A DNA stretch of 64,000 bases, taken from positions 4,105 to 68,104 of the forward strand of contig CALNYG010000003.1 of assembly GCA_942490825.1 (NCBI GenBank), given 5' to 3'. Position 1 is the first letter of the stretch. Each line of letters opens with the position of its first letter. Shown here piece after piece: positions 1,717 through 18,758 of the stretch. Below the pieces are notes generated by a model that saw nothing but the letters and a program-made list of their open reading frames with translations, searched no databases and had not been told where the DNA came from. This DNA comes from Candidatus Moraniibacteriota bacterium (lineage in GTDB: Bacteria > Patescibacteriota > Minisyncoccia > Moranbacterales > GCA-2747515). The position numbers were made by a program, and so were the translations under genes.

Positions 1717-1732
1717 TTTTGAGAATATTATT

Positions 1733-1766: not shown

Positions 1767-1773
1767 TATAAGT

Positions 1774-1917
1774 TGTCATTCTGAATGTAGCGTAGCGGAG
1801 TGAAGAATCTCAGTAAATTTTTCTGATATTTTAGTTTTAGAGTTTTGTGATTTTTTGTGGGGGATTCTTCGCTTCGTAAAATTTTCTAACGAAAATCTTA
1901 CTCTATTCAGAATGACG
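1774..1917. repeat. R2 palindromic element (TGTCAT...ATGAC termini), full copy
   Basis: TGTCATTCTGAAT-GTAGCGTAGCGGAGTGAAGAATC ... GGGGGATTCTTCGC ... ATTCAGAATGACG. Outer and inner inverted repeats surround an AT-rich spacer. Confidence 0.8.
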
Positions 1918-1924
1918 CGAAAAT

Positions 1925-1949
1925 GTATCATAGCCCGTGCGGCGAGCAC
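1925..1949 (+). repeat. R1 box, short form (GTATCATAGCCCGTGCGGCGAGCAC)
   Basis: One of 10 copies of the GCCCGTGCGGCGAGC core in the window. Confidence 0.8.
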
Positions 1950-2042
1950 TGTATTTTTTAAAATTATGTACTTTACTCAAATGTTTATAAAATATATAAT
2001 GGAAAGACAGTTTGATCTCTTTATTTCAAAAATAAAAACAAA

Positions 2043-3239: not shown

Positions 3240-3354
3240 AAATATTTTTTGGGTAGAGTTTTATGTGAGTTTAGAAAAAAGTTAAATTAATGTATAATAT
3301 TAAGTAGTTGATAAATTTAGTAATTAGCTAAATATTTTTTATTTAAAAATAAAT

Positions 3355-4473
3355 ATGGCAAAAAGAATAGTTTTAGTTGGCGGCGGATCAGGTGGACATA
3401 TTTTTCCGCTTGTAGCTGTGGCAAAAGAATTTAAAAAGCAACATCCAAATACAAAATTTCTCTATATGGGAAGTAACTCTCCAATGAGGCAAAAGGCTGA
3501 AGAAGCAATGACAAAAGAGGACATTAAAACAACCATTATTTTTTCGGGAAAGATTCGGCGTTATTTTTCATTTCGAACTATTTTGGATTTATTATTTATT
3601 CCATTGGGAATTATTCAATCGCTTATCATTTTATTGATTTATATGCCAGATGCGGTTTTTTCAAAGGGTGGTCATGATTCAGTTCCGGTGGTTTTAGCGG
3701 CTTGGATTTATCGAATTCCTGTTTTGACTCATGATTCAGATGCAATTCCAGGATGGGCAAATCGTTTTTGTGGAAGGTTGTCTAAATACGTAGCGATTTC
3801 TTATGAGCGAAGTCGAAAGTATTTTTTTAGTTATAAAACTTTATTAACGGGAAATCCTATTCGAGAGGAATTAACTCAAGGTGATGTAAAAAAAGCAAGA
3901 GAGCGATGGGGATTTAGTGAGTCTAAACCAGTTGTTTTTGTTACGGGAGGTAGTCAAGGAGCAAGGTTGATTAATAATTCTATTATTAAAATTTTAGGTG
4001 AATTGACTCATGTTGCTCAAGTTTTGCATGTAACAGGTCCAAAAAATTATGATCGAGTGAAAAAGTTAGCAGGAGAATATGGTTTTCGAACTGATCGACA
4101 TCGTTATGTTGCGGTTCCATTTTTAGAAAGGGATGAAATGGCGGATGCATATGCGTTTGCAGATGTGGTTATTTCGAGGAGTGGGGCTAATTCAATTACT
4201 GAAATTGCGGCAAATAAAAAACCATCTATTTTGATTCCACTAGCGAGTGCAGCGAATAATCATCAATATATGAATGGTTTTGAGATCGCTAGAATGGGGG
4301 GTGCGGTTGTTTTAGAGGAGGGTAATTTGACGAGACATGTTTTATTAGAAAAAATTAAGAAATTGATTTTGGATAAAGAATTAGCTAAACAAATGAGTGA
4401 AAAATCGTCTGGGTTTTATAATCCTAATTCTGCGAAAGAGATTGTGGAGGGGATTGATAAGATGATGAAATAG
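3355..4473 (+). CDS. murG: Undecaprenyl-PP-MurNAc-pentapeptide GlcNAc transferase MurG
   Basis: N-terminal GGGSGGHIFP loop, TGGSQGA motif, and length and position typical of MurG. Confidence 0.85.
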   Translation: MAKRIVLVGGGSGGHIFPLVAVAKEFKKQHPNTKFLYMGSNSPMRQKAEEAMTKEDIKTTIIFSGKIRRYFSFRTILDLLFIPLGIIQSLIILLIYMPDAVFSKGGHDSVPVVLAAWIYRIPVLTHDSDAIPGWANRFCGRLSKYVAISYERSRKYFFSYKTLLTGNPIREELTQGDVKKARERWGFSESKPVVFVTGGSQGARLINNSIIKILGELTHVAQVLHVTGPKNYDRVKKLAGEYGFRTDRHRYVAVPFLERDEMADAYAFADVVISRSGANSITEIAANKKPSILIPLASAANNHQYMNGFEIARMGGAVVLEEGNLTRHVLLEKIKKLILDKELAKQMSEKSSGFYNPNSAKEIVEGIDKMMK

Positions 4474-4581
4474 TTTTTGACGTTGGTGATTTATAATTTT
4501 AAAAAATAAAGATATTTATCAAAGTAATTTTTTATGGCTATAATAAATCTAAGTTTAATAAATATTTAAAAAAATAAAAAA

Positions 4582-5325
4582 ATGGAAGAAAATACTCCGA
4601 GTAAAGTGGGAACTTTTTTGAGTTCTGCAATGCATAAGTTTATAAGTATAATAGTGGTTTTATTAATTTTAGGATTAGCTGGAATTATAGTTTTCTTTTG
4701 GAATAAAAATCAACTTTTAGAGCAAAAGAATGAAATTTTACAAGAACAAAAAGATAATTTTACTGAAATGAATAATCAGGTTAGGGTTGAAGATGTTGTA
4801 GTTAAGAAAACTATTAAAGATGATGTTGAAGGTTTTGATAATATTGAAGTAACTACAAATAATAATTCTAGCGTACCTTTAAATTCTCGAAATGATATTT
4901 CAACTCAAAATAATACAATTGATAATAAAGTTTATTTTGAAGTTAAAGAATTAGGTATAAAATTTTTAATGGATAAAGATTTTGCAAATAAATTAACTTA
5001 TAAAGTAATAAGTGCAAACAGTGTAAATTTTTCAACAAAAGAACTTAACTCTATAGAGGGTGGTACTTGTGATAAAAAATTAGTTAGGATAACTAAAATT
5101 AAGGGAGTAGCTAATAATGATGATTCTTATGAAAAACCAATTAATATGAATTATATTAAACAATTTAAAAATTATTATATTCAACTTGAAGGACCACAAA
5201 TATCATGTTCTAATAATGATGAAAGAGTTTTAATGGATAAAAATAAAAAAGATTATTATTATCAACAAGAATTAGAAGTTTCAAAAAAAATATTGGATTC
5301 AATGATATCAATAACAGAATTATAA
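4582..5325 (+). CDS. Membrane-anchored protein, MEENTPSKV-family paralog 1 (conserved N-terminus, unique C-terminal domain)
   Basis: The first 24 aa (MEENTPSKVGTFLSSAMHKFISII) are identical to ORFs 50903-51700(-) and 52743-53498(-). A TM helix then a coiled-coil-like LLEQ...LQ.Q...F.EMN segment follows. The remainder is unrelated to the other paralogs. Confidence 0.6.
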   Translation: MEENTPSKVGTFLSSAMHKFISIIVVLLILGLAGIIVFFWNKNQLLEQKNEILQEQKDNFTEMNNQVRVEDVVVKKTIKDDVEGFDNIEVTTNNNSSVPLNSRNDISTQNNTIDNKVYFEVKELGIKFLMDKDFANKLTYKVISANSVNFSTKELNSIEGGTCDKKLVRITKIKGVANNDDSYEKPINMNYIKQFKNYYIQLEGPQISCSNNDERVLMDKNKKDYYYQQELEVSKKILDSMISITEL

Positions 5326-5331
5326 TTTAAA

Positions 5332-5397
5332 ATGTTAACTTTTTACTAAGATCTACCGCAAAAATTAGATCCTGTTTTATTTTTAACAGGATCTTTT
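5332..5397 (+). pseudogene. Fragment copying the 5' end of lgt (stop at codon 6)
   Basis: ATGTTAACTTTTTACTAAGATCTACCGCAAAAATTAGATCCTGTTTTATTTTTAACAGGATCTTTT aligns with the rc of the true lgt start (52738 downward), ATGTTAACTTTCTACCAAAACCTACCGCAAAAATTAGATCCTGTTTTATTTTCAGCAGGATCTTTT. Confidence 0.7.
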
Positions 5398-5439
5398 TTA
5401 ATTTCCCTAAAAACCCAAATTTTCTGGTATAATAAAAAC

Positions 5440-6312
5440 ATGATAATCGGACACAATAAACAAAAACAACTAATTGACCAAATGCTACAGAAAGAAAGTA
5501 TGAATCACCATGCTTTTATTTTTGCTGGTCCAGAATATATCGGAAAATATAAAATAGCCCAGCAATTTTCAAACGCCTTATCTGAAGGAACTAGTGATTG
5601 CGATTGGCGAAACATAAATCAGCGAGTAAATAGCGATATTACAATTATTGAGCCTCTAGCCGAAGAGAAAAAAGGAATTGTAAAATATAAAAATATATCT
5701 GTTTCACAAATTCGCGAGGCAGTGAGAGTTTTTCATTTATCAGTAGATAAAAAAGCGAAAGTTATAATTATTCGAAACGCACACAAAATGACTGTTGGGG
5801 CTCAAAATGCACTTTTGAAAACTTTAGAAGAACCACCTAAAAATTCTTTTTTAATTTTGACAACTTCTGAAACTTCAAATCTTTTAGACACGATCGTTTC
5901 CCGTTGTTTTAAAATTACATTTAATTTACTTGAAAAAGAAGAATTGCGAGTTTTAAGTGATGACGAGGAATTAATCGATAATGCAATGGGGCGACCAGAA
6001 TTATTACAAAAGATAACTGAAGATCATGAATTTAATGATTGGGTTAAATATTCGGTTGAGCAATTACGATCTTTGGCAAAATTATCCATACATGAAAAAA
6101 TTAATTTGGCGGAATTATTGAGTAAAAAAAATAAAAGCGATTTAGATATTTTCTTGCAAGTTTGGATTTGGAGAATCAGAAATGCTGCTCACAAAACGAA
6201 GAAATATAATTTGTTAAAATTTGCTGACAAGACAGAGAAAGTTTATCATGAGATTCATTCTAGTAATATTAATGTTCGATTGATTTTGGAGGATCTATTT
6301 TTAGGTGTTTGA
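5440..6312 (+). CDS. holB: DNA polymerase III delta-prime subunit (clamp loader)
   Basis: HAFIFAGPEYIGK P-loop-like segment, LKTLEEPP box and SRC motif, about 290 aa. Confidence 0.7.
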   Translation: MIIGHNKQKQLIDQMLQKESMNHHAFIFAGPEYIGKYKIAQQFSNALSEGTSDCDWRNINQRVNSDITIIEPLAEEKKGIVKYKNISVSQIREAVRVFHLSVDKKAKVIIIRNAHKMTVGAQNALLKTLEEPPKNSFLILTTSETSNLLDTIVSRCFKITFNLLEKEELRVLSDDEELIDNAMGRPELLQKITEDHEFNDWVKYSVEQLRSLAKLSIHEKINLAELLSKKNKSDLDIFLQVWIWRIRNAAHKTKKYNLLKFADKTEKVYHEIHSSNINVRLILEDLFLGV

Positions 6313-6332
6313 TGTGACATAGCTTTTGTGTA

Positions 6333-6468
6333 TGTCATCCCCACATGGTGGAGATTTAGGTTTAAAAAACTTTGGGTTAAATTACAAACTGAAGTGCAAT
6401 CGTAAAATTATAATTTTAATTATTCTGGACCTATCTGCCGAACAGGCAAGCTCCAGCCGGAAATGACA
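6333..6468. repeat. R2-family variant (TGTCATCCCCACATGG ... CCAGCCGGAAATGACA)
   Basis: Same TGTCAT/ATGACA termini and about the same size (136 bp) as other R2 copies. The right arm contains a CTATCTGCCGAACAGGCAAG hairpin module. Confidence 0.6.
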
Positions 6469-6489
6469 TTAAGATAGTTTATATAAATA

Positions 6490-7440
6490 ATGAAAATGTA
6501 CATAAAATCAATTAAAAAAAAGATAAAGAAAAAAAGTACTAAAAAACGTAAAAGTCAACAAAAGGAATTTTCTTGGAATAGATTTTATTTTAAATTGATC
6601 TGTATTTTATTTTTTGGAATAACAATTTATGTTTTATTTTTTTCTAAATTAGCAAAGGTTGATGAGATAAATATTAATGGTAATCAAGTTGTTAATTCAG
6701 AATCTATACTTCAAAATGTTGAGTTACAAATGACGACGAAAAACTTTTTACAAATCTCAAAAAGTAATTTTTTTCTTGTTTCAGAAAATAAGCTACAACA
6801 AACTATTTTGGATAATTTTCCTAAAATAAAAAATGTGGAAGTGAAAAAAGTTTTTCCAAATCAAATTGACGTTTCTGTTACTGAACATGATTTAATTCCT
6901 ATTGTGTGTATTGAGAGTCAGGAAGGGGAATGTTTTATTTTAGAAAATGATGGACGAATTGTTGAAAAAGCAGATTTTGATAGTGCAAAATTAAAAGAAA
7001 ATAAAATAGTGGTAATCATTGATAAGAATAAAAATGATATTGTTGAAATCGGCAAAGAATTTATTTTGGAGGAAAAGTTAAATAATATTATTTTTTTAGG
7101 GGAAGAGCTAACTTATGTTTTAAATGTTAAAATTAAACAGCCTTATATTATTCCAGCACGTGGGGCAAAGGAGGTTCAATTTAATACAGGCGAAGGTTGG
7201 TATTTGCAAATTGATACGGTTGATGATCCGCAAATTTCTTTGAAGGTAACCGAGCTTTTTTTTGAAAAAGGTTTTAATATTCAACACGATGATTTGACTC
7301 GTTATGATTTGGAATATGTTGATGCCAGAACAAATAAAAAGGTTTTTTATAAATATAATAAAAGCGAAAGAATTGTTGAAAGTGATCAAATGATGGATGA
7401 GGATTTAGAAGAAGAAAATGATGAAGTTGTTGAAAATTAG
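6490..7440 (+). CDS. ftsQ: Cell division protein FtsQ/DivIB-like (POTRA)
   Basis: Lys-rich N-terminus, a single TM, then a POTRA-like ININGNQVVNSESILQNV segment. Lies near ftsW-murG. Confidence 0.55.
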   Translation: MKMYIKSIKKKIKKKSTKKRKSQQKEFSWNRFYFKLICILFFGITIYVLFFSKLAKVDEININGNQVVNSESILQNVELQMTTKNFLQISKSNFFLVSENKLQQTILDNFPKIKNVEVKKVFPNQIDVSVTEHDLIPIVCIESQEGECFILENDGRIVEKADFDSAKLKENKIVVIIDKNKNDIVEIGKEFILEEKLNNIIFLGEELTYVLNVKIKQPYIIPARGAKEVQFNTGEGWYLQIDTVDDPQISLKVTELFFEKGFNIQHDDLTRYDLEYVDARTNKKVFYKYNKSERIVESDQMMDEDLEEENDEVVEN

Positions 7441-7555
7441 AGAAATTTTTTTTTTGTATATTTTATTTTTAATTATTTTAACAAACGTTGTATTTTAATT
7501 TAGAATTTTTCACTTTATATTTTTGAATAACGGAAAAATATGAATCTGTTATATT

Positions 7556-8041
7556 TTAAAAAAATTTATCACAGATCTTTTTTTCTTCGATCAAAACTTT
7601 TCTAATACCTTTGATCATCGCGAACAATCTACCAATCAACAATCCAGCCAAAAAAATCAAAGCAAAAGCATTCAGCTCATTACCATTTAACCAATGCCCA
7701 AAAATCCACTTTTTACCAATCTCAATTCCAATATAAATCACAAGAATAACAGTTCCCATTCTATCCAATTTCGTAACAACCTGTTGCTCCTCCTCATGCC
7801 AAAGCGTCTTAAACATCCTACCAGCAATCAATCCAATGGCAGTTCCAATCGATAAACTAAAAATAGCCAAGGGAAAACTCACATCTCCTCGAAAAATTTT
7901 GTGAGCAGAAATACCTAAAATTATAAAAATAATAATAAAGAATATCTTCAATCTTTTGCGGAGTTTTTTGCAAACATGCTTTCTAGTAATGTGTTTTTTA
8001 TTTTTAATATTATGATTTAATTTTTTTATAATTTTTTTCAT
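7556..8041 (-). CDS. Hypothetical membrane protein (3-4 TM)
   Basis: 161-aa ORF with a basic N-terminus and hydrophobic helices. No recognisable motif. Confidence 0.5.
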   Translation of the reverse strand: MKKIIKKLNHNIKNKKHITRKHVCKKLRKRLKIFFIIIFIILGISAHKIFRGDVSFPLAIFSLSIGTAIGLIAGRMFKTLWHEEEQQVVTKLDRMGTVILVIYIGIEIGKKWIFGHWLNGNELNAFALIFLAGLLIGRLFAMIKGIRKVLIEEKKICDKFF

Positions 8042-8103
8042 GTTTATTTTTGTAAAAAAGATTGAAAGTTTTGATGTTTAACAAAATTCCAGATAAATAA
8101 TTT

Positions 8104-8222
8104 TTTCACTCTGTTACAAAATTATTTTCCAGAATGACATGATTTGGATGACTTGTTGATGTGATGTCTGTATTTTATAAGTTTATCAGAAAAGTTGATT
8201 GTTTGCTATGTTCAGAATGACG
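8104..8222. repeat. Two partial R2 right arms (...CCAGAATGACA at 8130-8139; ...GTTCAGAATGACG at 8210-8222)
   Basis: The sequences match the right-arm ends of full R2 copies but lack left arms. Confidence 0.5.
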
Positions 8223-8413
8223 TGAAAAAATTAAATCATGTTTATAAAATTAATGCAGAAAATACGCAGAGATATTTTATTGAAGTTTGGAACTGGTCGA
8301 TCGATTATGGTGAAATTTCTTTTACACACATTCGACGAGAGCAAAATAAAGTTGCAGATAGTTTGGTGAATAAAGCTTTGGATGAAGAAAGCGATCAGGT
8401 GGCTTTGTTTTAA
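8195..8413 (+). pseudogene. RNase H-like C-terminal remnant
   Basis: Only the C-terminal ~55 aa of an RNase HI/RVT_3-type domain is present (...ISFTHIRREQNKVADSLVNKALDEE). The N-terminal catalytic half is absent, and the 5' part of the ORF is R2 repeat sequence. Confidence 0.6.
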
Positions 8414-8431
8414 TTTATTGTAATGAAATAA

Positions 8432-8552
8432 TGCAGGAGCGGGTTTTGTAACCCGCTCCACACGTTCATCTTTAACTTATAAATAAATTTAAAATATAGT
8501 TTTTCTATAATTCAGAAACGTCATGAAACCAGTTGTAAAACTAGTTCCTGCG
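8432..8552. repeat. R3 element (TGCAGGA...TCCTGC termini, 121 bp)
   Basis: Left arm TGCAGGAGCGGGTTTTGTAACCCGCTCCACACGTT and right arm AACGTCATGAAACCAGTTGTAAAACTAGTTCCTGCG. Each arm is itself a hairpin. Other copies are at 59084 and 62130. Confidence 0.8.
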
Positions 8553-8586
8553 AAAAGTTTTGTTGATGCTTAAATTTAAAATTTTT

Positions 8587-8676
8587 GTGATTTTCTGTGG
8601 GGGATTCCTGTCTGCCGACAGGCAGGCTTCACTTCTTTATTTTTTTAACAAAAAAATAAATCCGTTCAGAATGACA
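8587..8676. repeat. R2 half element with embedded hairpin module H (8607-8626)
   Basis: GTGATTTTCTGTGGGGGATTC-[CTGTCTGCCGACAGGCAGG]-CTTCAC...CCGTTCAGAATGACAG. Apart from the H insertion it is the rc of the copy at 58984-59050. Confidence 0.75.
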
Positions 8677-8703
8677 GAAGACTTTAAGAAAAACTATTAA
8701 CCC

Positions 8704-8750
8704 AAAAAGCCCGTGCGGCGAGTCTGCCTATCGGCAGACAGGCACTTTTT
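8704..8750 (+). repeat. R1 box, long form (with CTGCCTATCGGCAGACAGGC hairpin and T-run)
   Basis: AAAAAGCCCGTGCGGCGAGTCTGCCTATCGGCAGACAGGCACTTTTT. Confidence 0.85.
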
Positions 8751-8864
8751 AAAATAAAAAAAACTTTTAACTTAACTTAAATTAAAGATAAAGATTTTCC
8801 AACTATTGACAAAATAAAAATAAAATGTTATAGTTGATGGTTAACTTAGCATTAAAAATATTAA

Positions 8865-9893
8865 ATGAAAAAATATTTACCAACAATTATAGTATTTATC
8901 GTGGTTTTTGCGGTGATATATTTTATATTCGGAGGAGGAATGGTTCGGGTGCAGGCGTTGATGAAGGAAGAAGAAAAAACAACCATCACAACAACTCAGC
9001 TGATGGAAAAATTAACTGAGCAGAATTTTGGTATTTCGCCGTATTGGCTGGAGCGTTATGAAATCTCAGTTAGTTCAATGGAGGATGCACAGGCAGATGC
9101 AGATAGTGATGGCTTGACTTTAGAGCAGGAATATTTGTATTTAACTAATCCGTTCAGTGACGATACTGATGGTGATGGATATAAAGATGGTGAGGAAGTT
9201 GTAAATGGGAATTCACCAACAGGAAATGGAAAATTGGATATGCAACAAATTGCTAATAAACATTCAGAGGAAAGTTTAGCGGTTAAATTGGATGAAGATG
9301 ATCGTAATCAAGATGATTTTGATAATGATGGTTTGGATAATGATTTAGAAAAGACGCATGGAACTGATCCAAATAAAGCCGATACTGATGGTGATGGCTA
9401 TGATGATTTTACGGAAATTAAAAATGGTTACGATCCAGTGGCTTCTGGTGAAGTTCGTCCAACTGTAGAAATCGAAATTGATAAAATTGGTGTTAATGCT
9501 CCAGTTATTCTAGCTGTTGATAGCTCAGAGGAGGCTTTGCAGGATAATTTGGAGAGTGGCGTGGTTCATTATCCGAAAACAGCGATGCCTGGTCAGCGGG
9601 GTAATGTTTATATTGCAGGACATAGCAGTAATTATTCTTGGTCAACTGGGAGTTATAATTATATTTTTCAGGGATTGAATGGTTTAAGTGTTGGTGATAA
9701 AATTACTTTGAAAGTTAAGCAGAAAAATGGGAAGACTTTGACTTATGAATATGAGGTGAGTGAGAAGTTGGAAGTGGAGGCTGATGATCCGCGGATTTTT
9801 TCTAATACTCAATCTCAGATTTTGACTTTGACGACTTGTTGGCCGTTGGGCACAAGTAATAGACGATTAATGATTAAGGCTTATTTGATTTAG
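8865..9893 (+). CDS. Sortase-family transpeptidase fused to thrombospondin type-3-like Ca-binding repeats
   Basis: N-terminal TM. Four D-x-D-x-D-G-type repeats (DSDGLT, DTDGDGYKDGEE, DNDGLDND, DTDGDGYDDFTE). C-terminal sortase motifs are YIAGHSS (His), LTLTTC (Cys) and NRRLMIKA (Arg). Confidence 0.75.
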   Translation: MKKYLPTIIVFIVVFAVIYFIFGGGMVRVQALMKEEEKTTITTTQLMEKLTEQNFGISPYWLERYEISVSSMEDAQADADSDGLTLEQEYLYLTNPFSDDTDGDGYKDGEEVVNGNSPTGNGKLDMQQIANKHSEESLAVKLDEDDRNQDDFDNDGLDNDLEKTHGTDPNKADTDGDGYDDFTEIKNGYDPVASGEVRPTVEIEIDKIGVNAPVILAVDSSEEALQDNLESGVVHYPKTAMPGQRGNVYIAGHSSNYSWSTGSYNYIFQGLNGLSVGDKITLKVKQKNGKTLTYEYEVSEKLEVEADDPRIFSNTQSQILTLTTCWPLGTSNRRLMIKAYLI

Positions 9894-10016
9894 GTAGTTC
9901 AATCTTATTTTTTAGACATGAGAGTTGGTTTTTTTAACTAACTCTTTTTGTTTTTTGACTTTTGTTTTGAATAAAGTTAATATTAATGTAGAAAAATAAA
10001 TTTTAGATCTGAACTT

Positions 10017-10427
10017 ATGAAAAATGAAAATGAAAAAAAATATGACATTGATCAAGTTGGTTCTATGATTGAAGCTTTGACCAGTACGGTTCAACTTGCT
10101 TTTGATCAAAATGATATAACTAACAGACACTTGAACAATATTGAAAAGGATGTCTCGACCTTGAAGTCTGATGTTTCAGAATTGAAAACTGATGTTTCAG
10201 AATTGAAAACTGATGTTTCAACTTTAAAATCTGAAATGGTGGAAGTAAAAGGCAGATTGGGTAATGTTGAAATTAAATTGGAAAATGTTGAAGATAAAGT
10301 GGATGTTTTGCAAGAAGATGTCACTGATATTAAACATAAATTATCGGAGAAAGTTGATCGGGAGGAATTTAATGCTTTGGAAAAGAGGTTGATTAAATTG
10401 GAAAGGATGGTTTTAGAAAAGGCTTAG
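10017..10427 (+). CDS. Coiled-coil protein with heptad tandem repeats
   Basis: 136 aa containing the DVSTLKSDVSELKTDVSELKTDVSTLKSEM repeat block. Confidence 0.55.
   Translation: MKNENEKKYDIDQVGSMIEALTSTVQLAFDQNDITNRHLNNIEKDVSTLKSDVSELKTDVSELKTDVSTLKSEMVEVKGRLGNVEIKLENVEDKVDVLQEDVTDIKHKLSEKVDREEFNALEKRLIKLERMVLEKA
10149..10232 (+). repeat. 4 x 21-bp in-frame tandem repeat (GATGTTTCAGAATTGAAAACT consensus)
   Basis: Read directly from the sequence. The two central units are identical. Confidence 0.9.
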
Positions 10428-10572
10428 TTTTTTATAAATAATAAGTGTTTTTTGACTTTTATATTGATTGGGTGTAGTATGGATTTATAGGGAGTTAGTT
10501 GATTGGAGAAAAATTGAGTTTGAAAGAATGTTTGTAAGGGATTATTTGTTTAATCTTTTGTGGGTAAAAATA

Positions 10573-10605
10573 GGCTGGTCTCAAGCGGGAGATCAGTCTT
10601 TTTTT
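10573..10605 (+). terminator. Intrinsic terminator T0
   Basis: GGCTGGTCTC-AAGCGG-GAGATCAGTC forms 10 bp including 2 G-U pairs, so it folds only in + strand RNA. T7 follows. Confidence 0.65.
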
Positions 10606-10617
10606 GTTCGCGTGGGG

Positions 10618-10645
10618 TTGACAGGATTTTTGATGTGTGTATAAT
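10618..10645 (+). promoter_or_regulatory. Sigma-70-like promoter of leader U
   Basis: TTGACA (10618-10623), 16 nt spacer, TATAAT (10640-10645). The TTGACAGG start is shared with the promoter at 13844. Confidence 0.55.
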
Positions 10646-10675
10646 ATTAAGTGTTAGTTGATTTATTTTTTTGAA

Positions 10676-10830
10676 ATGAATATACAAAAACAAACAATTT
10701 GGACTTCTTTTATTTTTATGCTGCTGTTCGTCTTTAAGATAGACCGGTTTGTTTTTGTTGATAATAGTTAGAAAGTTAAAATATTTTATCGATAAACATA
10801 AGCTGGTCTCAAAAAGAGGGCGGTTTTTTT
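10676..10830 (+). promoter_or_regulatory. Leader/attenuator-like element U upstream of the ligase operon
   Basis: Short T-rich ORF(s). Region 1 (10729-10733) pairs with region 2 (10741-10750). Region 2 pairs with region 3 (10800-10809, 10 bp including 2 G-U). Region 3 pairs with region 4 (10816-10825), followed by T7. Architecture and sequence are homologous to 13878-14010. Confidence 0.5.
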
Positions 10831-10978
10831 GTTCTTTTAAAATTGGTTTTCAGATTTTTTTGTTCTCCTTGGGTTTTTTCTTTCCACTTTTTTGTTTAGT
10901 TTCTTTTTTGAAAGTGAATGGGAATGTGGAAGGAGGTTTGTTTTTTATTTAAAAATAGATGCCTGAGGGAGGCGAGTT

Positions 10979-12076
10979 ATGAAATCAAATATTACAGCAA
11001 AAAATATAGTGAATTCTCTGAAAAGAGTAAATTTATCTCAGTATAGAAATATAAGCTACTTTGCTTTCTATGGGATGGAACTTGAATGTTTTATAGTCGA
11101 CCAGTCTGGTCGAGCAATTGATTTGACAAGTCCAATTTCTCAGGGGGTTTTTGCACAACTTCGTGCGAATAAAAAAGTTGCTCGGATTTTATGGGCTATT
11201 GGAACTGATTTTGGGCGTAACATGTTTGAAGTTGCGTTTAAAAAATTTAACAATCCAGTTGATTTTATGAAGGCAATGATTTGCCTTTTTGATGCTATTT
11301 CTAAGGATCCAATTGCTCGTAAATGGAGGTTTGTTTTTGGTAATAATCCGGATACGAGTTTGGGTTGGATTAGAGAGAATGAGCGATACAGGGTGCTTTA
11401 TAGTATTGCTAGAAAAAATGGTATTGATTTAATTGATCAGATGGCATCTTTTGCTTCAATGCAGATAAATATTTGTGCGGAAGCTTTTGGAGGGATGTTT
11501 AGCCCGTTAGCTTTTGAATGTTTTAAGGGACTGAGTAATTGGGCACCTGCAATTGCGAGAGATGTTGAATTGTCAGTTAATCCTCTGATAGATAAACAAC
11601 AAGGGAGAGATAGAATTTCAGAAGTCTTTGCAGACTTTGTGAATAAAAAAAATCTAGCCCGATATATAGGAAAGGATTATTTTTACAAAGATTTGAAATC
11701 CGTGATTATAAGCACTCCTCATGTCATTATTCAAAAAGATGGCAAATGGATTCCAGCTCCTTCTGAGAGTTATCCTCAGAAGTTAAGTGAGGCTAACTAT
11801 TCAACTAATTGGCCTGATCTTAGGTCAAGTGGATACAATGGACCTGAAAAAGATCGTAGATTTGAATTTCGTCCATTGGACTCCATGAATCCTTTAACTA
11901 TGTTTCATGTTGTGAATCATTTTGATGGAATTTTAAGAAAAATAGTTAAGTTAGCAAAGAAAGGAGAAATTATATATCAAAGTGAGACAGATTGGCGGCG
12001 TGTTCGTTACAAAAAGGATTATAATTTAGCACGTTCCTTTTTGAATAATGTAGGCATTAAACCTATGGTTATCTGA
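10979..12076 (+). CDS. Carboxylate-amine ligase, glutamate-cysteine ligase family 2 (YbdK/GCS2)-like
   Basis: YGMELECFIVD resembles the GxExE..V(D/N) N-terminal motif of YbdK. WPDLRSS...RRFEFRPLDS resembles its HWDIRP...VEVRVMD C-terminal motif. GAGGGAGG SD precedes the ATG. Confidence 0.6.
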   Translation: MKSNITAKNIVNSLKRVNLSQYRNISYFAFYGMELECFIVDQSGRAIDLTSPISQGVFAQLRANKKVARILWAIGTDFGRNMFEVAFKKFNNPVDFMKAMICLFDAISKDPIARKWRFVFGNNPDTSLGWIRENERYRVLYSIARKNGIDLIDQMASFASMQINICAEAFGGMFSPLAFECFKGLSNWAPAIARDVELSVNPLIDKQQGRDRISEVFADFVNKKNLARYIGKDYFYKDLKSVIISTPHVIIQKDGKWIPAPSESYPQKLSEANYSTNWPDLRSSGYNGPEKDRRFEFRPLDSMNPLTMFHVVNHFDGILRKIVKLAKKGEIIYQSETDWRRVRYKKDYNLARSFLNNVGIKPMVI

Positions 12077-12082
12077 AAACCA

Positions 12083-12119
12083 GAGACGGAGACTCGCACG
12101 CATGCGTAGTCTCTGTCTC
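12083..12119 (+). other. GC-rich 16-bp intercistronic hairpin
   Basis: GAGACGGAGACT-CGCA-CGCA-TGCG-T-AGTCTCTGTCTC, starting 7 nt after the ligase stop. No T-run follows. Confidence 0.6.
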
Positions 12120-12234
12120 ACAAATAAAATTTTATTTTGTAACAACTTCGAATAATAAAAATTCTAAGCAAATACAAAATAAAATAAATTTATTTTTTGT
12201 GTTATTATAAATTCATTATTATTCAAAAAATATT

Positions 12235-13035
12235 ATGTCAAAAAGTCATTATTCAAAATATAGAAAAAAATCGAATATACTTGTAACTTGTGAACATGCT
12301 TCAAAAAGAATTCCTAAAGAGTATGGGCTTTTAGGCTTGACTAGGGAAGATTTAAAAAATTCAAAAGACTGGAATGACGAAGGATCTTACGATGTAATGA
12401 AAAATTTAAGTGAAAAAATCGGATCTAGTTATCTCTATTCAAATGTTTCAAGATTATTCATAGATTGTAATAGAAAATTAAATCCGAGCAATAAAGACAA
12501 GGATAGTTTTTATTCATGCCCAATGAAGACAGAGCTTTTAGTTGAAAAAGATGAAGAAGAAAAATTGATAAAAATTCCTGCAAATATTTATAAAAATAAA
12601 AAGGAATTTTCGTGTGAAGAAAAAAAAAGATACAAAGAATATGTTGAACCTTATGTTAAAGATGGATATAAAATAATTGAAAAAATAAGAGGGAATCATG
12701 AGAAGAGTTTTTTGATTATGATCCATTCATTTTTTCCAGTTTATAATGGAGACAAGCGAAAAACTGATATTGGTGTTTTGCACGAGAATTCTTCTGTAGC
12801 TAAAAAAATTACAAAGAGTTTAAGAAAAAATTCTAATGGTTTAAAAATTGATGAAAATAAACCTTATAAATTAGCAGATGCGGATGGAGCGGTTTTTTAT
12901 AAAGTTCAAGAAGAAATGGATGATGTTGAATTGATTGTTTTTGAATTGAATAATAAAAATTTACGGACAAAGACAGGGGTAAATAAAATTTCTAGTTTAA
13001 TTTATAAGAGTTTGAAAGATATTGGAATTGTATAA
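12235..13035 (+). CDS. N-formylglutamate amidohydrolase (FGase)-family hydrolase
   Basis: ILVTCEHASKRIP start, VSRLFIDCNR, LIMIHSF and ENKPYK segments match the characteristic FGase-family blocks. Confidence 0.65.
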   Translation: MSKSHYSKYRKKSNILVTCEHASKRIPKEYGLLGLTREDLKNSKDWNDEGSYDVMKNLSEKIGSSYLYSNVSRLFIDCNRKLNPSNKDKDSFYSCPMKTELLVEKDEEEKLIKIPANIYKNKKEFSCEEKKRYKEYVEPYVKDGYKIIEKIRGNHEKSFLIMIHSFFPVYNGDKRKTDIGVLHENSSVAKKITKSLRKNSNGLKIDENKPYKLADADGAVFYKVQEEMDDVELIVFELNNKNLRTKTGVNKISSLIYKSLKDIGIV

Positions 13036-13082
13036 AAGTAGAAAATTAATTTTAAAAAGTGAGTCAAATATTATAGTATTTT

Positions 13083-13826
13083 ATGAATAAAAAAATTTTA
13101 GTTTTACAATTTAGATCAGAAGATTTAGCTTCAGATAATGAGTTTGAAGATGTAATTTTAGGGATTGGCGGTTTAAAGGAGAATGAAGTTCATCGAGTTC
13201 GACTTGAACATGGTGAGATGTCAGAAATTAATTTAGATGATTATAATGGTGTGATTGCTTGTGGAGGTCCGTATGATTCCAGTAAGCCAGCTAAAGAAAA
13301 ATCTGAAAGTCAAATCAAGTCTGAAGAGAAATTTTCTGAAATTATCAAGGAGGTGATTGAAAAAGATAAATTATTTCTATCTATTTGTTTTATTGGTCTT
13401 GTAAATAAAATTTGTGACGGTAAAGTTTCTAAAGAGAAATATTCAGAAGATCCAGCAGTTGTTGATGTTATTTTAACGGAAGAAGGTAAAGAAGATAAAA
13501 TTACCAATGGAATTTCTGATAAATTTAGAGCTATCGTGGCACATAAAGAGGCTTGGCAAAATGCTGGAGAGGGCGTGACAGTTTTGGCTGAATCAGAAGG
13601 TTGTCCATTTGAATTGATGCGTGTTAAAAATAATGTTTACGCTTGTCAATTTCATCCTGACTTAGATGTTGGTGGGTTAGAATTTAGATTAAATATTTAC
13701 AAGAACTTTGGGTATTGTGATCCAGATGAGATTGAGGAGATTATTGGTGGTATGAGAGGGGAAGATGTGTCTGAATCTTTAAAGATTTTAACTAATTTTG
13801 TTGGATTTTGTAGAGAAGTTGAATAA
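13083..13826 (+). CDS. Class I glutamine amidotransferase-like protein
   Basis: Nucleophile-elbow-like LSICFIG and ACQFHPD (the usual form is QFHPE). About 247 aa standalone GATase1. Confidence 0.55.
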   Translation: MNKKILVLQFRSEDLASDNEFEDVILGIGGLKENEVHRVRLEHGEMSEINLDDYNGVIACGGPYDSSKPAKEKSESQIKSEEKFSEIIKEVIEKDKLFLSICFIGLVNKICDGKVSKEKYSEDPAVVDVILTEEGKEDKITNGISDKFRAIVAHKEAWQNAGEGVTVLAESEGCPFELMRVKNNVYACQFHPDLDVGGLEFRLNIYKNFGYCDPDEIEEIIGGMRGEDVSESLKILTNFVGFCREVE

Positions 13827-13843
13827 TATTAGTTAGTAGGCTA

Positions 13844-13871
13844 TTGACAGGTATTTTTATTTGAATATAAT
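13844..13871 (+). promoter_or_regulatory. Sigma-70-like promoter of leader D (probably leaderless mRNA)
   Basis: TTGACA (13844-13849), 16 nt spacer, TATAAT (13866-13871). The ATG at 13878 begins only 6 nt after the -10 box. Confidence 0.55.
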
Positions 13872-13877
13872 GTAATT

Positions 13878-13931
13878 ATGAATTTGAAATTACAAACAAC
13901 TAAATCACTTTGGTGGTGGCGATCTAACTAA
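13878..13931 (+). CDS. 17-aa leader peptide MNLKLQTTKSLWWWRSN
   Basis: Three consecutive TGG codons (13911-13919) lie directly 5' of RNA region 1. The stop codon lies in the loop of the 1:2 hairpin. Confidence 0.45.
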   Translation: MNLKLQTTKSLWWWRSN

Positions 13932-14010
13932 AGATCAGCTTGTTTTTGTTTATAAAAAAATTTAAACTTTCGTAAATAATATTAGCTGATCTTTTAGGTC
14001 GGCTTTTTTT
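13918..14010 (+). promoter_or_regulatory. Attenuator D: alternative 1:2, 2:3 (antiterminator) and 3:4 (terminator) structures
   Basis: 13918-13925 pairs with 13932-13940. 13930-13940 (AAAGATCAGCT) is the perfect complement of 13984-13994. 13984-13991 pairs with 13997-14004 (8 bp, 2 G-U), followed by T7. Confidence 0.55.
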
Positions 14011-14057
14011 GTTTTGCATTAATTTAAGTTTTTAAATAAAAACAAGGAGAATTTATA

Positions 14058-14214
14058 ATGCCTAAGTCAAAAGAAAAAATGTCCACACTGTAATACAGTA
14101 CTTATAAAAAAGAAAGGCAAAAGAAGTTGTTCTTTTGGTTCTTCAAAAAAAGATGGCGTATGGGTTTGTCCAAATCAGCCTCATTGTGCAAAAAAAAGAT
14201 TTAGTTCTACCTAA
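14058..14214 (+). pseudogene. Small topoisomerase-type C4 zinc-ribbon ORF interrupted by a frameshift in an A-run
   Basis: AAGGAG SD then ATG 14058 gives MPKSKEKMSTL*. The +1 frame continues KCPHCNTVLIKKKGKRSCSFGSSKKDGVWVCPNQPHCAKKRFSST*. Deleting one A from GAAAAAATG would join them into a 51-aa protein. Confidence 0.45.
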
Positions 14215-14241
14215 AAGTTTCTTAATTGGCTAGATTAAATG

Positions 14242-14276
14242 ATTCGTGTTGGTGATTTCACTGGCACGAATTTTTT
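14242..14276 (+). terminator. Intrinsic terminator
   Basis: ATTCGTG-TTGGTGATTTCACTGG-CACGAAT followed by T6. Confidence 0.6.
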
Positions 14277-14327
14277 CTTTTTACGAAAGGGTTAGAAAAT
14301 AAAAAAAATAATTTTATCACAAAACCT

Positions 14328-14353
14328 AAAAAGCCTGTGCAGCGAGCACAAAA
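14328..14353 (+). repeat. R1 box, degenerate short form
   Basis: AAAAGCCTGTGCAGCGAGCACAAAAA has two substitutions relative to the GCCCGTGCGGCGAGCAC core. Confidence 0.6.
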
Positions 14354-14602
14354 AAATAACATTAACAATTTATTAAATCAAAACCACAAAAAACAAAAAA
14401 TCAACAATTTAAATACAAAAAACCGTTAAAAATTCCCAAAAACAACAAATATTCACGATTTTTATTTTTTGAAACTCTAAAAAATAAAATAAATAATGAT
14501 AAGTTTTTTAAAAAAATTAAAATTATTGACAATACTTGATATTATCCCTATTTTGGAATAGAATAAAATCATAATATACAATAATCTTAAAAAATAAAAA
14601 CT

Positions 14603-15376
14603 ATGAAAAGTTTTATCAAAAATGAAGACATAATCAGATATTTAAATAAAACAAAATCATTAGCTTTAATTTTTGGTTGCTTTGTTTTAGTTTTTCTTTT
14701 AGCTTTAGTACTTATCGATGCAAAAGAAAGTGCACCAAAAAAAACAGTTTCAGTTATTGGAGCAATTGAAGAAAAAATTTACAAGGACGCACAGTTTTCT
14801 TTAGATTTTGTTGCATACGGATTAAATGAAGAAGACGCAAAAAAGAAAATTGATGATAAAGTTATTGAGATTAAAGGATCAGTAGAAAACTTTGATGAAA
14901 TTATAATTGGTAAAGTGAAGACGGATGTAACAGTCGAATGTATCGTTAGTCAAGGACAATATTATCAAGCCCAGACAACAGAAAACGGTGTATGTTTAAG
15001 TAACAACTGGCGAGCCCAATCAAGAATTAAAATTTTAATTAAAGGAAATAAATATACAGAGAAAATTAAAAATAAATTTTTGAGTTTAGCACCAAATATT
15101 GTAAATACTGCAAGCGGTCCAGTTTTTATCAAAAAAGAAATTGATGATGAATTTAAAGAATTACTTATTGAAAAAGCAATGGCAAATGCTGAGGTGAAAG
15201 CAAGTAAAATGGCTACAGAGAGTAATAAAAAATTAGGAGAGGTTATTCGAATAAATGAAGATCCAATTGTTAATAATAATTTGATGTCTGTGCGAAGTGA
15301 GGATAAAGTTATTCTTGGCCCAGGTGAAGATTTAGTAAAGAAAGAAATTTTGGTTGAGTACGAGTTAGAAAATTAA
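14603..15376 (+). CDS. SIMPL/DUF541-like secreted protein
   Basis: N-terminal TM anchor. The C-terminal LIEKAMANAEVKASKMATESNKKLGEVIRINED block resembles the conserved SIMPL-domain C-terminus. Confidence 0.45.
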   Translation: MKSFIKNEDIIRYLNKTKSLALIFGCFVLVFLLALVLIDAKESAPKKTVSVIGAIEEKIYKDAQFSLDFVAYGLNEEDAKKKIDDKVIEIKGSVENFDEIIIGKVKTDVTVECIVSQGQYYQAQTTENGVCLSNNWRAQSRIKILIKGNKYTEKIKNKFLSLAPNIVNTASGPVFIKKEIDDEFKELLIEKAMANAEVKASKMATESNKKLGEVIRINEDPIVNNNLMSVRSEDKVILGPGEDLVKKEILVEYELEN

Positions 15377-15492
15377 TTGTATATTTTTTAGTTTTGAAAA
15401 GGCGTGAATTATCACGTCTTTTTTATTTTGTGGGTAGACTTTAAAATAGATTTGATTTAAAATTAGGATGTTACTAGTTAAATATAAAAAAT

Positions 15493-15765
15493 ATGGAAAA
15501 TGCAATGAAAGAAAAAATGAAGAAACTTATAAAAACACAGTTTTTTGTTTTGTTAGTGGGAACAATTTTTGCTTGGGGAAATTTTATTTGGGAATTAGTG
15601 AATTATCTTCAAGATAAAGAGTGTGCAACAAGTTGTACAGTTGGTCTAGTAAATCCATTCAAGACACCTTGTTTTTTTGGGGCAATGTTTTTTCTTACTG
15701 CTTTTGTTATAAGTGCAATAATGTTTAAGGGAATTAAAAAATGCTGTGCTGGAAAATGTGAATAA
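15493..15765 (+). CDS. Small Cys-rich two-TM membrane protein
   Basis: 90 aa with two hydrophobic helices and Cys clusters (ECATSC, PC, CCAGKC). Confidence 0.45.
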   Translation: MENAMKEKMKKLIKTQFFVLLVGTIFAWGNFIWELVNYLQDKECATSCTVGLVNPFKTPCFFGAMFFLTAFVISAIMFKGIKKCCAGKCE

Positions 15766-15799
15766 TAACGGAATAAATATAATTTAGTTAATAAAAATT

Positions 15800-16666
15800 A
15801 TGAGTAAAAAAATAAAAAAAGCGGTTGTGGCAGTGGCAGGGTCGGGAACACGATTATTGCCTGCAACAAAAGCACAACCAAAAGAAATGTTACCAATCGT
15901 TGATAAACCAATCATTCAATTAGTAGTGGAAGAATTAGTCGAAGCAGGAATTGAAGATATTATCTTTGTAACTCGTTGGGATAAAAAGCCGTTAGAAGAT
16001 CATTTCGATCATTCAAGAGCTTTGGAATACGATTTAAAAAAGAGTGGAAAAGAAGAACTATCAAAAGCTATGTCAGATTTAGCGGAGATGGCAAATTTTG
16101 TTTATGTTCGACAAAAGCCTCAGTATGGAAATGGTGTTCCAATTTTGTCTGCTGCTAGTCTTGTTGATGATGAGCCTTTTGTATTTTGTTTTGGTGATGA
16201 TTTAGTTAGATCAAAAAGTTCTTTTACAAAGCAAATGGTAGAGGATTATGAAAAAAATGAAAATTTAATGGTGGGTGTTCAAGAAGTTCCTTTAAAAGAA
16301 GTTTCTAAATATGGTATTGCAAATTTAGTTGAGGGAACAATGCAAATTGATGAATTAGTTGAAAAGCCTTCAGCTGAGGAAGCTAAATCTCGATTAGCGG
16401 TTTTTGGTAGATATATTTTAAATCAAGAAATTATTGATGCTTTAAAAAATACAGCGATAGGTAAAGGAGATGAGTTATGGGTAAGTGATGCAATTGAAAA
16501 TTATATTAAAGATGGGGGAAAGTTTTATGCAAAGAAAGTTGAAGATGGTGAGTGGATGACCACAGGAGATCCAATGAATTATTTGAAAACAACTTTAGCT
16601 TATGCGATGGATAGAGATGATATTGGAGGAGAATTGAAGAAGTATGTGAAAGATTTATATTGTTAA
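15800..16666 (+). CDS. galU: UTP-glucose-1-phosphate uridylyltransferase
   Basis: KAVVAVAGSGTRLLPATKAQPKEMLPIVDKPIIQ N-terminal signature. About 288 aa. Confidence 0.85.
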   Translation: MSKKIKKAVVAVAGSGTRLLPATKAQPKEMLPIVDKPIIQLVVEELVEAGIEDIIFVTRWDKKPLEDHFDHSRALEYDLKKSGKEELSKAMSDLAEMANFVYVRQKPQYGNGVPILSAASLVDDEPFVFCFGDDLVRSKSSFTKQMVEDYEKNENLMVGVQEVPLKEVSKYGIANLVEGTMQIDELVEKPSAEEAKSRLAVFGRYILNQEIIDALKNTAIGKGDELWVSDAIENYIKDGGKFYAKKVEDGEWMTTGDPMNYLKTTLAYAMDRDDIGGELKKYVKDLYC

Positions 16667-16685
16667 TTCTTACAAATAATTTAGT

Positions 16686-16720
16686 AAAAACCAACAAATT
16701 GTATAATTTTGTTGGTTTTT
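16686..16720 (+). terminator. Intrinsic terminator after galU
   Basis: AAAAACCAACAAA-TTGTATAA-TTTTGTTGGTTTTT. Confidence 0.7.
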
Positions 16721-17245
16721 AATTTTCTGATTTAGTGAGGAAGTTTTTTTAGTTATATTTAACAAAATAACACAATGCCAGTCTATTTAAAAATATTGTA
16801 ATGGTAGTGGAATTTCTCAATTTTTTTCTCAATTTAGTCTTAATAAAATGCTTTATTTTTATATTTTTTTATAATCTAGCCTGTTCTAATTAATTCATTT
16901 TTAATTATATTGGAGCGTTGTTTTTAATTGCTAAAGAAGGATAAATTTTTTTGTGGTTTTTTAAAAAATATGTTATTATTTTAGTATCAATAAACTCCTA
17001 CCCGCAACAGTCAATTAGGACACCCAGCAAAAGCTTGTCGCCAAAAGGCTTTTACAAGTATAATATCTTAATAAGAGCTTAGAATACTTTAAATAAAGCA
17101 TTTTTATCCCTTTTTGAGATAGGCAGGTTATTAGTTTTTCTTATAAAATAAGGCTTATTAACTAGTAGCTACTGTCCTAATTCAAAAAGGAATGTAGGAA
17201 CTTAAAATAAAAAATAAAAAGTTGTAAAATAAAAGTTATAAATTT

Positions 17246-18553: not shown

Positions 18554-18758
18554 ACTCTTAGATGATTTTTTAAAAGAAGTGACTTTCCTCGCTTCTTTTT
18601 TGTAGTAATTTAGATTATTTAAATATTTTTTTCAGTTTCAATAATTAGCTAATTTATTTTTAACTTTTAAAATTTATATGCTTATTAATTTAAATATTCG
18701 AGTATCTTTGTCAAGATTAATAAAATTTTGTATAATTTAAAGATAAGTTAATATAATA

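Follow-up and report, generated by a model that had tools for sequence, protein, structure and literature searches.

In the E. coli trpL, pheL/pheA, hisL, leuL, thrL and ilv leaders, a short open reading frame (ORF) lies between the promoter and the operon, and the transcript contains segments that pair alternatively as 1:2, 2:3 and 3:4, where the 3:4 helix is an intrinsic terminator followed by a U tract; the position of the regulatory codons is such that segment 1 is masked when a ribosome stalls on them. A similar arrangement is found at positions 10618-10830 on the forward strand of the stretch analysed here (the window, 64,000 nt of contig CALNYG010000003.1 from a Candidatus Moraniibacteriota bacterium, with a GC content of 29.6 %), upstream of an operon encoding a carboxylate-amine ligase, an FGase-family amidohydrolase and a class-I glutamine amidotransferase-like protein (GATase), and again in a paralogous element at 13844-14010 that carries three tryptophan codons (WWW) as its putative regulatory codons. 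We refer to these elements as leader A and leader B. The arrangement of the sequence leads us to favour, as probable though well short of certain, the reading that leader A is a ribosome-mediated (leader-peptide) transcription attenuator gating read-through into the ligase-FGase-GATase operon.

The comparison with the E. coli-type leaders also brings out differences, in that the leaders described here have no match to an Rfam leader family, leader B and the orthologous leaders in other genomes are leaderless, the A-type ORF continues through segment 2 to the apical loop and has no clean run of one codon, the downstream genes encode a ligase of the glutamate-cysteine ligase (GCL) fold, an amidohydrolase and an amidotransferase rather than enzymes for biosynthesis of the putative cognate amino acid, and the host is Patescibacteria-like. 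An ORF that runs through segment 2, a conserved C-terminal motif and a putatively regulated operon that is not biosynthetic are unusual traits.

Two further kinds of system share part of this layout. TnaC of the tryptophanase operon and SpeFL of the ornithine decarboxylase operon rely on Rho-dependent termination and have experimentally defined arrest residues; they are likewise encoded by short upstream ORFs with a conserved C-terminal motif near the stop codon, and the position of the ribosome governs termination before a catabolic or modifying operon, whereas the terminator described here is intrinsic and arrest is a possibility. In operons for ribosomally synthesized and post-translationally modified peptides (RiPPs), such as nisA-nisB, and with many lantibiotic precursor genes, the precursor-peptide gene is followed by a leaky terminator, so that in both cases a short ORF under a strong promoter is followed by a hairpin terminator, and the enzyme genes beyond it are reached by read-through; the present leaders differ in the conserved pairing between coding sequence and terminator arm, in substitutions that are not protein-like, and in having no protease or transporter gene in their operons.

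A leaderless comparator is provided by the mycobacterial polycysteine short ORFs, in which an unannotated ORF is the first cistron of an AUG-first mRNA and pausing of ribosomes at the codons of one amino acid governs expression of the rest of the operon (Canestrari et al., bioRxiv 10.1101/834739). Those ORFs resemble the present leaders in being leaderless and in occurring as several copies per genome with the same logic, though they act on a ribosome-binding site, while the control here would be transcriptional and exerted at an intrinsic terminator (bioRxiv 10.1101/834739). In Sinorhizobium meliloti, both the small RNA rnTrpL and the leader peptide peTrpL function in trans (PMC6614838, PMC7298713), and trans functions of this kind could explain extra peptide conservation and consensus promoters in the leaders described here, although the sequences are unrelated. 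A full-text literature search returned no paper mentioning both transcription attenuation and the candidate phyla radiation or Patescibacteria.

Alternative pairings in leader A

The elements of leader A are as follows, with the helix energies of the isolated pairings.

10618-10645, + strand: promoter, TTGACA, a 16-nt spacer and TATAAT (TTGACAGG at 10618), consensus score 12/12
10676 (ATG) to 10769-10771 (TAG), + strand: leader ORF of 31 codons encoding MNIQKQTIWTSFIFMLLFVFKIDRFVFVDNS, without a Shine-Dalgarno sequence
10684-10695, + strand: 5' arm ACAAAAACAAAC of the outer helix (P0), perfectly complementary over 12 bp to 10747-10758, duplex -14.4 kcal/mol
10723-10735, + strand: region 1, with core GTCT (10730-10733) pairing with AGAC (10741-10744), 1:2 pairing -4.8 kcal/mol
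10741-10764, + strand: region 2, the 5' strand of the antiterminator, inside ORF codons I22-N30
10786-10810, + strand: region 3, the 3' strand of the antiterminator, whose 3' part (10800-10810) doubles as the 5' arm of the terminator
10816-10830, + strand: region 4, comprising the 3' arm of the terminator (10816-10826) and the T7 tract (10824-10830) that overlaps its end

Within positions 1-20000 of the window there are only two promoter matches that score 12/12, at 10618-10645 in leader A and at 13844-13871 in leader B, and the predicted transcription start of copy A lies about 24 nt 5' of the AUG. Region 1 is located within the ORF, just 5' of region 2, and has region 4 as its alternative partner in a long hairpin. 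Region 2, which makes up the last third of the ORF, is complementary to region 3, located 45-60 nt downstream, and region 3 is in turn complementary to region 4, which leads into the U tract. The core of region 2 (AGACCGGTTT, 10741-10750) pairs with the core of region 3 (AAGCTGGTCT, 10800-10809) at 10/10 positions, two of them G.U, and the 3:4 terminator has a stability of -10.7 kcal/mol with one G.G mismatch and several G.U pairs; this single mismatch is the reason that a simple terminator scan overlooked it.

An earlier note on this DNA had proposed the attenuator layout, and the promoter, the ORF, the three overlapping pairings (1:2, 2:3 and 3:4) and the T7 tract were all found, with every coordinate that it gave for leader A agreeing with the sequence. 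Its picture of two hairpins is in need of correction, because the minimum free energy (MFE) structure of both copies is a single long co-axial hairpin in which regions 1 and 2 pair with regions 3 and 4, and whose base abuts the U tract. Folding compared with shuffled sequence gives z = -3.2 for A and z = -4.7 for B. In the long hairpin of A, 9/35 pairs are G.U, which confines the structure to RNA of the + strand and sets it apart from a DNA palindrome. A DNA palindrome or mobile element was rejected as an explanation of the family because of the many G.U pairs, the strand-specific scores and the fixed position 5' of orthologous genes across genomes of 30-54 % GC.

The favoured mechanism would operate as follows. 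In RNA free of ribosomes, regions 1:2 and 3:4 would pair, or the co-axial hairpin of regions 1 and 2 with regions 3 and 4 would form with its base at the U tract, and transcription would terminate in either case. A ribosome that reaches the stop codon unimpeded would unwind regions 1 and 2, leaving region 3 to pair with region 4, again with termination. A ribosome stalled about 12-25 nt 5' of region 2, however, would mask region 1 and free region 2, which would then capture region 3 and leave region 4 partnerless, allowing read-through.

Other classes of element were considered for this structure. A search of the whole window with Rfam at gathering scores returned only tRNA, and a permissive Rfam scan of 10400-14100 gave miRNA-type matches at chance level, with L20_leader as the nearest leader family (18.5 bits against a gathering score of 58.7). 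A riboswitch was rejected because what is conserved is one long hairpin, whose apical loop is A-rich and variable, and no multi-helix aptamer. A type I toxin-antitoxin unit was set aside because one of the orthologous peptides (MNHISEHRFFSFFSFIPGDRFVFVDER, locus L088) is not transmembrane-like and the element is always tied to the ligase operon; the sole minus-strand site in A that might serve as a type I antisense promoter (10812-10783, 10/12) has no obvious counterpart in the ortholog L081 by by-eye inspection only.

Conservation in a paralog and in orthologous leaders

The paralogous copy, leader B, starts 18 nt past the stop codon of the GATase gene and has the following parts.

13844-13871, + strand: promoter of leader B (whole leader 13844-14010)
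13878 (ATG) to 13929-13931 (stop), + strand: leader ORF MNLKLQTTKSLWWWRSN, carrying W12-W14; the ATG lies 6 nt past the -10 box and the stop just before region 2
13918-13927, + strand: region 1
13931-13955, + strand: region 2
13972-13993, + strand: region 3
13996-14004, + strand: region 4
14004-14010, + strand: T7 tract

Plain blastn of A against B gives fragmentary matches, each non-significant (E 0.13-0.46). That the two elements are nevertheless paralogs, as had been proposed, is borne out by a MAFFT alignment with 76 % column identity, and by covariance model R2, which was built from A and the orthologs in other genomes with B left out, and which ranks B second in the 64-kb window (34.8 bits, rough E ~6e-6, with the next + strand match at 18.4 bits). 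In the alignment, the -10 box and the ATG of A are separated by an insertion of 24 nt, and there are 7-nt and 4-nt indels within the "coding" part, through which the conserved peptide frame is lost in B while the 12/12 promoter and all helices are kept. Retention of promoter and helices without the peptide frame argues for selection on the RNA and its translation, not on the peptide product. As to the claim that the substitutions between A and B leave all pairings intact, the 2:3 helix has one true compensatory change from C-G to U-A and two changes from wobble to Watson-Crick pairs, and the last pair is lost in B.

Orthologs in four other genomes provide far stronger support for selection on the RNA pairings than the A/B pair does. 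The same device stands directly 5' of the operon in the loci L081 (ligase homolog P0002), L082 (P0003), L088 (P0008) and L089 (P0009), and a second contig of P0003, L083, carries the same leader sequence as L082. These four homologs are among the closest to the ligase, their GC contents range from 33 to 54 %, and the genome of L088 is the one at 54 %. In each device a promoter is followed by an ORF of 27-32 codons whose ATG coincides with or lies close to the transcription start, and the RNA can form an antiterminator helix and a terminator, except that the L089 contig begins inside the leader ORF, downstream of region 1. A hidden Markov model built from L081, L082 and L088 only finds copy A with E = 3e-14. 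The spacing from the -10 box to the ATG is 6 nt in B, L081 and L082, as against 10 nt in L088, which indicates that these mRNAs are leaderless or nearly so.

When each of the six sequences is folded alone, the terminator is present in 6/6 (-10.5 to -21 kcal/mol), with the U tract interrupted in L088, and an antiterminator of regions 2:3 that shares region 3 with the terminator is likewise present in 6/6 (-17.5 to -28 kcal/mol). The 1:2 hairpin is found in 5/5 sequences that have region 1 on the contig, all but L089, and is weak (-3.7 to -7.2 kcal/mol). An alignment of homologous leaders had been suggested by the earlier note, and it reveals covariation in the 2:3 helix, while the stall windows discussed below have no shared codon run. 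In the six-sequence alignment A4, where region 2 of leader A occupies columns 24-47 and is tested with columns 70-93, 81.8 % of cells are paired, and sliding the 3' partners by 1-3 columns lowers this to 35-51 %; both sides have changed in 9/23 pairs, the score for covariation reaches 0.374 against at most 0.168 in the slid controls, and at most 4/500 column shuffles reach the observed values. RNAalifold independently gives 2:3 as the consensus helix, with compensatory changes in 7/20 pairs. The terminator helix, which is aligned less well, is 75.8 % paired in the MAFFT alignment, and the +1 slide is nearly equal. The variable nucleotides of region 2 fall at non-conserved codons (KIDR / KRGH / RRGR / PGDR), and the flanking F-K and F-V-F codons are conserved. 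Covariance model R1 is strand-specific, with scores of 88-98 bits on the + strand and 34 bits on the minus strand.

The 12-bp outer helix P0, which the earlier note described for leader A, is strong in A (-14.4 kcal/mol) and L081 (-16.7 kcal/mol) only. As a family feature it was rejected because the corresponding pairing does not exceed that of shuffled sequence in B, L082 and L088.

The distance between the end of the terminator and the first start codon bears on how the operon is transcribed.

L089: about 31 nt
L088: about 40 nt
Leader B: 47 nt
L081: 49 nt
L082: 84 nt
Leader A: 148 nt

Four of the six loci (L089, L088, B and L081) thus have no space for another promoter and a Shine-Dalgarno leader, which argues that the operon is transcribed through the terminator. 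This lack of space at most loci also bears on whether the terminated transcript of about 150-180 nt is itself a trans-acting small RNA, with the ORF incidental or secondary and the unit standing alone beside the operon. Consensus promoters do drive short, strongly structured transcripts ending at terminators here, two copies occur within one genome, and small RNAs derived from attenuators are known to act in trans, as with rnTrpL in Sinorhizobium (PMC6614838); we nonetheless consider such a stand-alone unit very improbable, given that in five genomes the element is always immediately 5' of the ligase operon and co-oriented with it, that the open frame and its in-frame indels are conserved, and that no target complementarity was identified. 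A secondary role in trans, like that of rnTrpL, is possible.

The device was also sought more widely. It is absent 5' of the more distant ligase homologs (P0004, 6, 7, 10, 11, 12 and 13), and 80 related loci around GalU, the nearest being from Ca. Moraniibacteriota with 74 % GalU identity, include none with the operon or the element. A metagenome DNA-pattern scan with TTGTTTTTGTTKATAAN{20,50}AGCTGRTCT gave 0 matches and a metagenome protein-profile scan gave 0 confirmed loci. No further copy was found by nhmmer in the window and L001-L080, or by covariance model R1 in the window and L001-L014, L084-L087, L090 and L092-L096, and in 318 kb of window and loci this model finds just the six elements. 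At 1487-1575 of L094, 5' of the distant ligase homolog P0012, there is an unrelated-looking 25-codon ORF (MSFQSLINNTTESSLFFVFLLLVTP) with a hairpin (GAGCAUCUUUGCUC) directly after it and then a U-rich stretch; this ORF was rejected as a family member, as it lacks the 2:3 architecture and has no match to the covariance model.

Just 5' of leader A, at 10443-10606 of the window, there is a possible third small transcription unit with TTGACT, 17 nt and TAGTAT, an RNA of about 130 nt (fold z = -2.8) and a strong terminator at 10572-10599 with T7. The 5' arm of this terminator (GGCTGGTCTC) is nearly identical to region 3 of leader A (blastn 82 % over 33 nt, E 9e-4), and beyond this arm the unit is not similar to leader A. 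The unit may have been left over from a further duplicated copy, or it may represent the distant terminator of the gene at 10017-10427.

The leader reading frame and its candidate signals

The ATG frame of 31 residues, which had been read from the letters of this copy, proves to be a real and conserved frame, since it is kept in L081, L082 and L088. The ORF is open in all four complete loci (A, L081, L082 and L088) at 27-32 codons, W9 is at the equivalent codon in A, L081 and L082, and the sole difference in length among these three is an in-frame deletion of 2 codons. The orthologous peptides are as follows.

L081: MQKQNMTIWYLFLFIIELFFKRGHFVFADKPN
L082: MQKQTITIWYLLFITILIRRGRFIFIRE
L088: MNHISEHRFFSFFSFIPGDRFVFVDER, as given above
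L089: ...CLFWKVGFDLYV, with the N-terminal part off the contig

Between A and L081 the peptide identity is 45 %, the differences by codon position are flat (9/9/11), and there are 2 synonymous against 16 non-synonymous codon changes. In-frame indels together with flat codon positions fit a frame that is translated but whose product is weakly constrained. The other frame to which the earlier note had drawn attention, TTG-DFFYFYAAVRL, has no counterpart in L088 and a different stop position in L081; it was rejected because its stop has no fixed structural position, and its likeness to out-of-frame translations of L081 and L082 is due only to nucleotide homology.

These substitution data also bear on the proposal that the ORF encodes a functional peptide, either a RiPP-like precursor or substrate of the ligase and amidohydrolase or a small hydrophobic protein, in which case the hairpin and U tract would be a leaky terminator or stabiliser that sets a high ratio of peptide to enzyme. 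The layout would suit such a system, as a very strong promoter precedes a short conserved ORF that is separated by a terminator from enzyme genes dependent on read-through; the peptide is partly conserved (the 45 % identity of A and L081), and it co-occurs with the ligase and amidohydrolase and, in L081, with an ATP-grasp-like ligase as well. We judge this proposal unlikely, however, as there is no third-position bias in the changes from A to L081, a leaky terminator needs no covarying pairing of the coding region 2 with the 5' arm of the terminator, copy B destroys the frame while retaining promoter and structure, and no protease or transporter gene was found in the operons.

Returning to the attenuator reading, the codons at which a stalled ribosome would mask region 1 and leave region 2 free can be estimated if the ribosome is assumed to cover some 12-13 nt of mRNA beyond the A-site codon on its 3' side, a geometry accurate to roughly ±3 nt. 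This gives the following permissive A-site windows.

Leader B: L11-W12-W13-W14
Leader A: F14-M-L-L-F18
L081: I15-I16-E17, with F14 falling 2 nt outside
L082: L12-F13-I14-T15
L088: F10-S11-F12-F13

As far as codon positions can tell, leader B fits a tryptophan attenuator very well, in that W12-W14 fill the window where region 1 is masked and region 2 is free, and the three tryptophan codons would be its stall codons. For copy A and its orthologs the signal would be slow decoding of phenylalanine codons, possibly with other hydrophobic codons, though the assignment is weak. Phenylalanine makes up 22/118 residues (19 %) of the A-type peptides compared with a background of 5.6 %, and 7/27 residues in the GC-rich L088, and by this enrichment it is the best candidate signal for the A type, an assignment that we hold loosely. 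It is plausible that A and B form a pair of sensors tuned to different aromatic amino acids.

Several considerations weigh against leader A being an attenuator of this kind. The A-type stall windows share no clean codon run (FMLLF, IIE, LFIT and FSFF), and phenylalanine codons are present further downstream as well, at positions where stalling would promote termination. The A-type ORF passes through region 2 into the apical loop, whereas the classical trp leader ORF stops between regions 1 and 2, and its C-terminal R-F-[VI]-F-[VIA]-[DR] shows more conservation than would be required of a simple leader peptide. Copy A alone has an untranslated leader, of about 24 nt, and this is without a Shine-Dalgarno sequence. 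The controlled genes have no demonstrated link to phenylalanine or tryptophan, Patescibacteria-like hosts are expected to be amino-acid auxotrophs, and to our knowledge there has been no demonstration so far of transcription-translation coupling in Patescibacteria. Finally, the covariation statistics rest on few sequences, as there are only five orthologous loci and one paralog.

The conservation of the C-terminus suggests another possibility, in which the ORF would be a nascent-peptide sensor of the TnaC/SpeFL type, with R-F-V-F-V-D arresting the ribosome near the stop codon on a metabolite of the ligase pathway and the position of the ribosome on region 2 selecting terminator or antiterminator. 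The motif DRFVFVD is identical in A (30 % GC) and L088 (54 % GC) despite this 24-point gap, with valine codons that differ only at synonymous third positions (GTT to GTC in L088); it lies in the last 9 residues, and so inside the exit tunnel when the ribosome is at the stop codon. The stop codon of the A-type ORF is always in the apical loop of the 2:3 hairpin, that is, of the antiterminator, and the peptide co-occurs with a single ligase subclade. However, the nucleotides that encode the motif also build the antiterminator stem (and P0 in A and L081), so that constraint on the RNA can account for a large part of its conservation; in L082 (RFIFIRE) and L089 (GFDLYV) the motif has degenerated, it matches no arrest motif that we know of, and copy B is without it yet keeps the RNA switch. 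On balance we think a nascent-peptide sensor rather unlikely. A broader conjecture is that the conserved R-F-V-F-V-D makes the ORF either a ligand-sensing arrest peptide or a substrate of the GCL-fold ligase, that the leader reports a metabolite of the ligase and amidohydrolase, and that B was retuned to tryptophan by a frameshift; the odds of this are low in our estimate, but if it were true, the pair would be a natural example of a translation-coupled RNA switch gaining a new input.

The putatively regulated operon and the meaning of the leaders

The genes and spacers that follow the two leaders are listed here.

10831-10978, + strand: structured spacer of 148 nt from the leader A terminator to the ligase ATG, MFE -48.5 kcal/mol, z = -5.3
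10979-12076, + strand: first operon gene, carboxylate-amine ligase of the GCL/GS/YbdK fold, 365 aa, AlphaFold2 pLDDT 90
12235-13035, + strand: FGase-family amidohydrolase, PF05013, E 3.9e-19
13083-13826, + strand: GATase, PF00117, NCBIfam PRK07567 250 bits (cut-off 264)
14058-14214, + strand: 51-aa C4 zinc-ribbon frame after leader B, with a +1 frameshift in an A6 run (14074-14079) and a weak PF03119 match

A Pfam search of the 365-aa ligase gave nothing above threshold, and the best PDB matches of its AlphaFold2 model are plant glutamate-cysteine ligase, glutamine synthetases and YbdK, so that the label "ligase" is justified at the level of the predicted fold. The protein is very rare, an exhaustive HMMER search giving 15 representatives in 1.84 billion proteins; a word-indexed search with the ligase query returned itself alone, and a ligase profile returned itself and P0008.

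The FGase gene also follows the ligase gene in L081 and L082. In L081, a 410-aa ATP-grasp-like protein, with weak matches to carbamoyl-phosphate-synthase-like and D-Ala-D-Ala-ligase models, is encoded between the leader and the GCL-fold ligase (3757-4989), so the L081 operon encodes two ligase types and an FGase amidohydrolase. Other genes stand close to ligase homologs in several loci, each with scores below curated cut-offs: a tyrosine/histidine-decarboxylase-like pyridoxal-phosphate enzyme overlapping the start of a distant ligase homolog (L086, 245-2697), a prephenate-dehydrogenase-like gene divergent from the leader promoter (L081, 2664-3455), and a divergent diaminopimelate/ornithine-decarboxylase-like gene (L092, 2760-3920). 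The neighbouring genes give hints that the ligase acts on an amine derived from an amino acid.

In the spacer of leader A, the ligase Shine-Dalgarno sequence GAGGGAGG lies within 10961-10976, a segment that pairs with the pyrimidine-rich stretch 10859-10874, and the start codon is paired too. The structured spacer may be a second, translational layer of control; the structure is not conserved, as the spacers of the orthologs measure only about 31-85 nt.

The zinc-ribbon frame after leader B has the motif CPHC...CPNQPHC, which is weakly DNA_ligase_ZBD-like, and the ATG at 14058 is in another frame, so that a +1 shift is required; the frameshift at 14074-14079 may reflect an error in sequencing or a pseudogene, or may be a programmed one, and a strong terminator lies 3' of this frame. 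Elsewhere in the window, on the minus strand at 58799, there is a 335-aa ORF whose ATG lies 6 nt past a promoter-like site (TTAAAA, 18 nt, TATAAT), which makes it another candidate for a leaderless mRNA in this genome.

Regulatory RNA in Patescibacteria (candidate phyla radiation) is almost unexplored. If the leaders are attenuators of the kind favoured here, tiny and largely auxotrophic cells would couple transcription to translation and would read the speed of the ribosome as a nutrient sensor. The operon of a very rare GCL-fold ligase would thereby be flagged as tightly regulated, giving a handle for finding the condition that induces it, and the A/B pair would show in compact form how an attenuator has been duplicated and recoded, from Phe-rich to WWW, with the RNA switch kept by compensatory changes.

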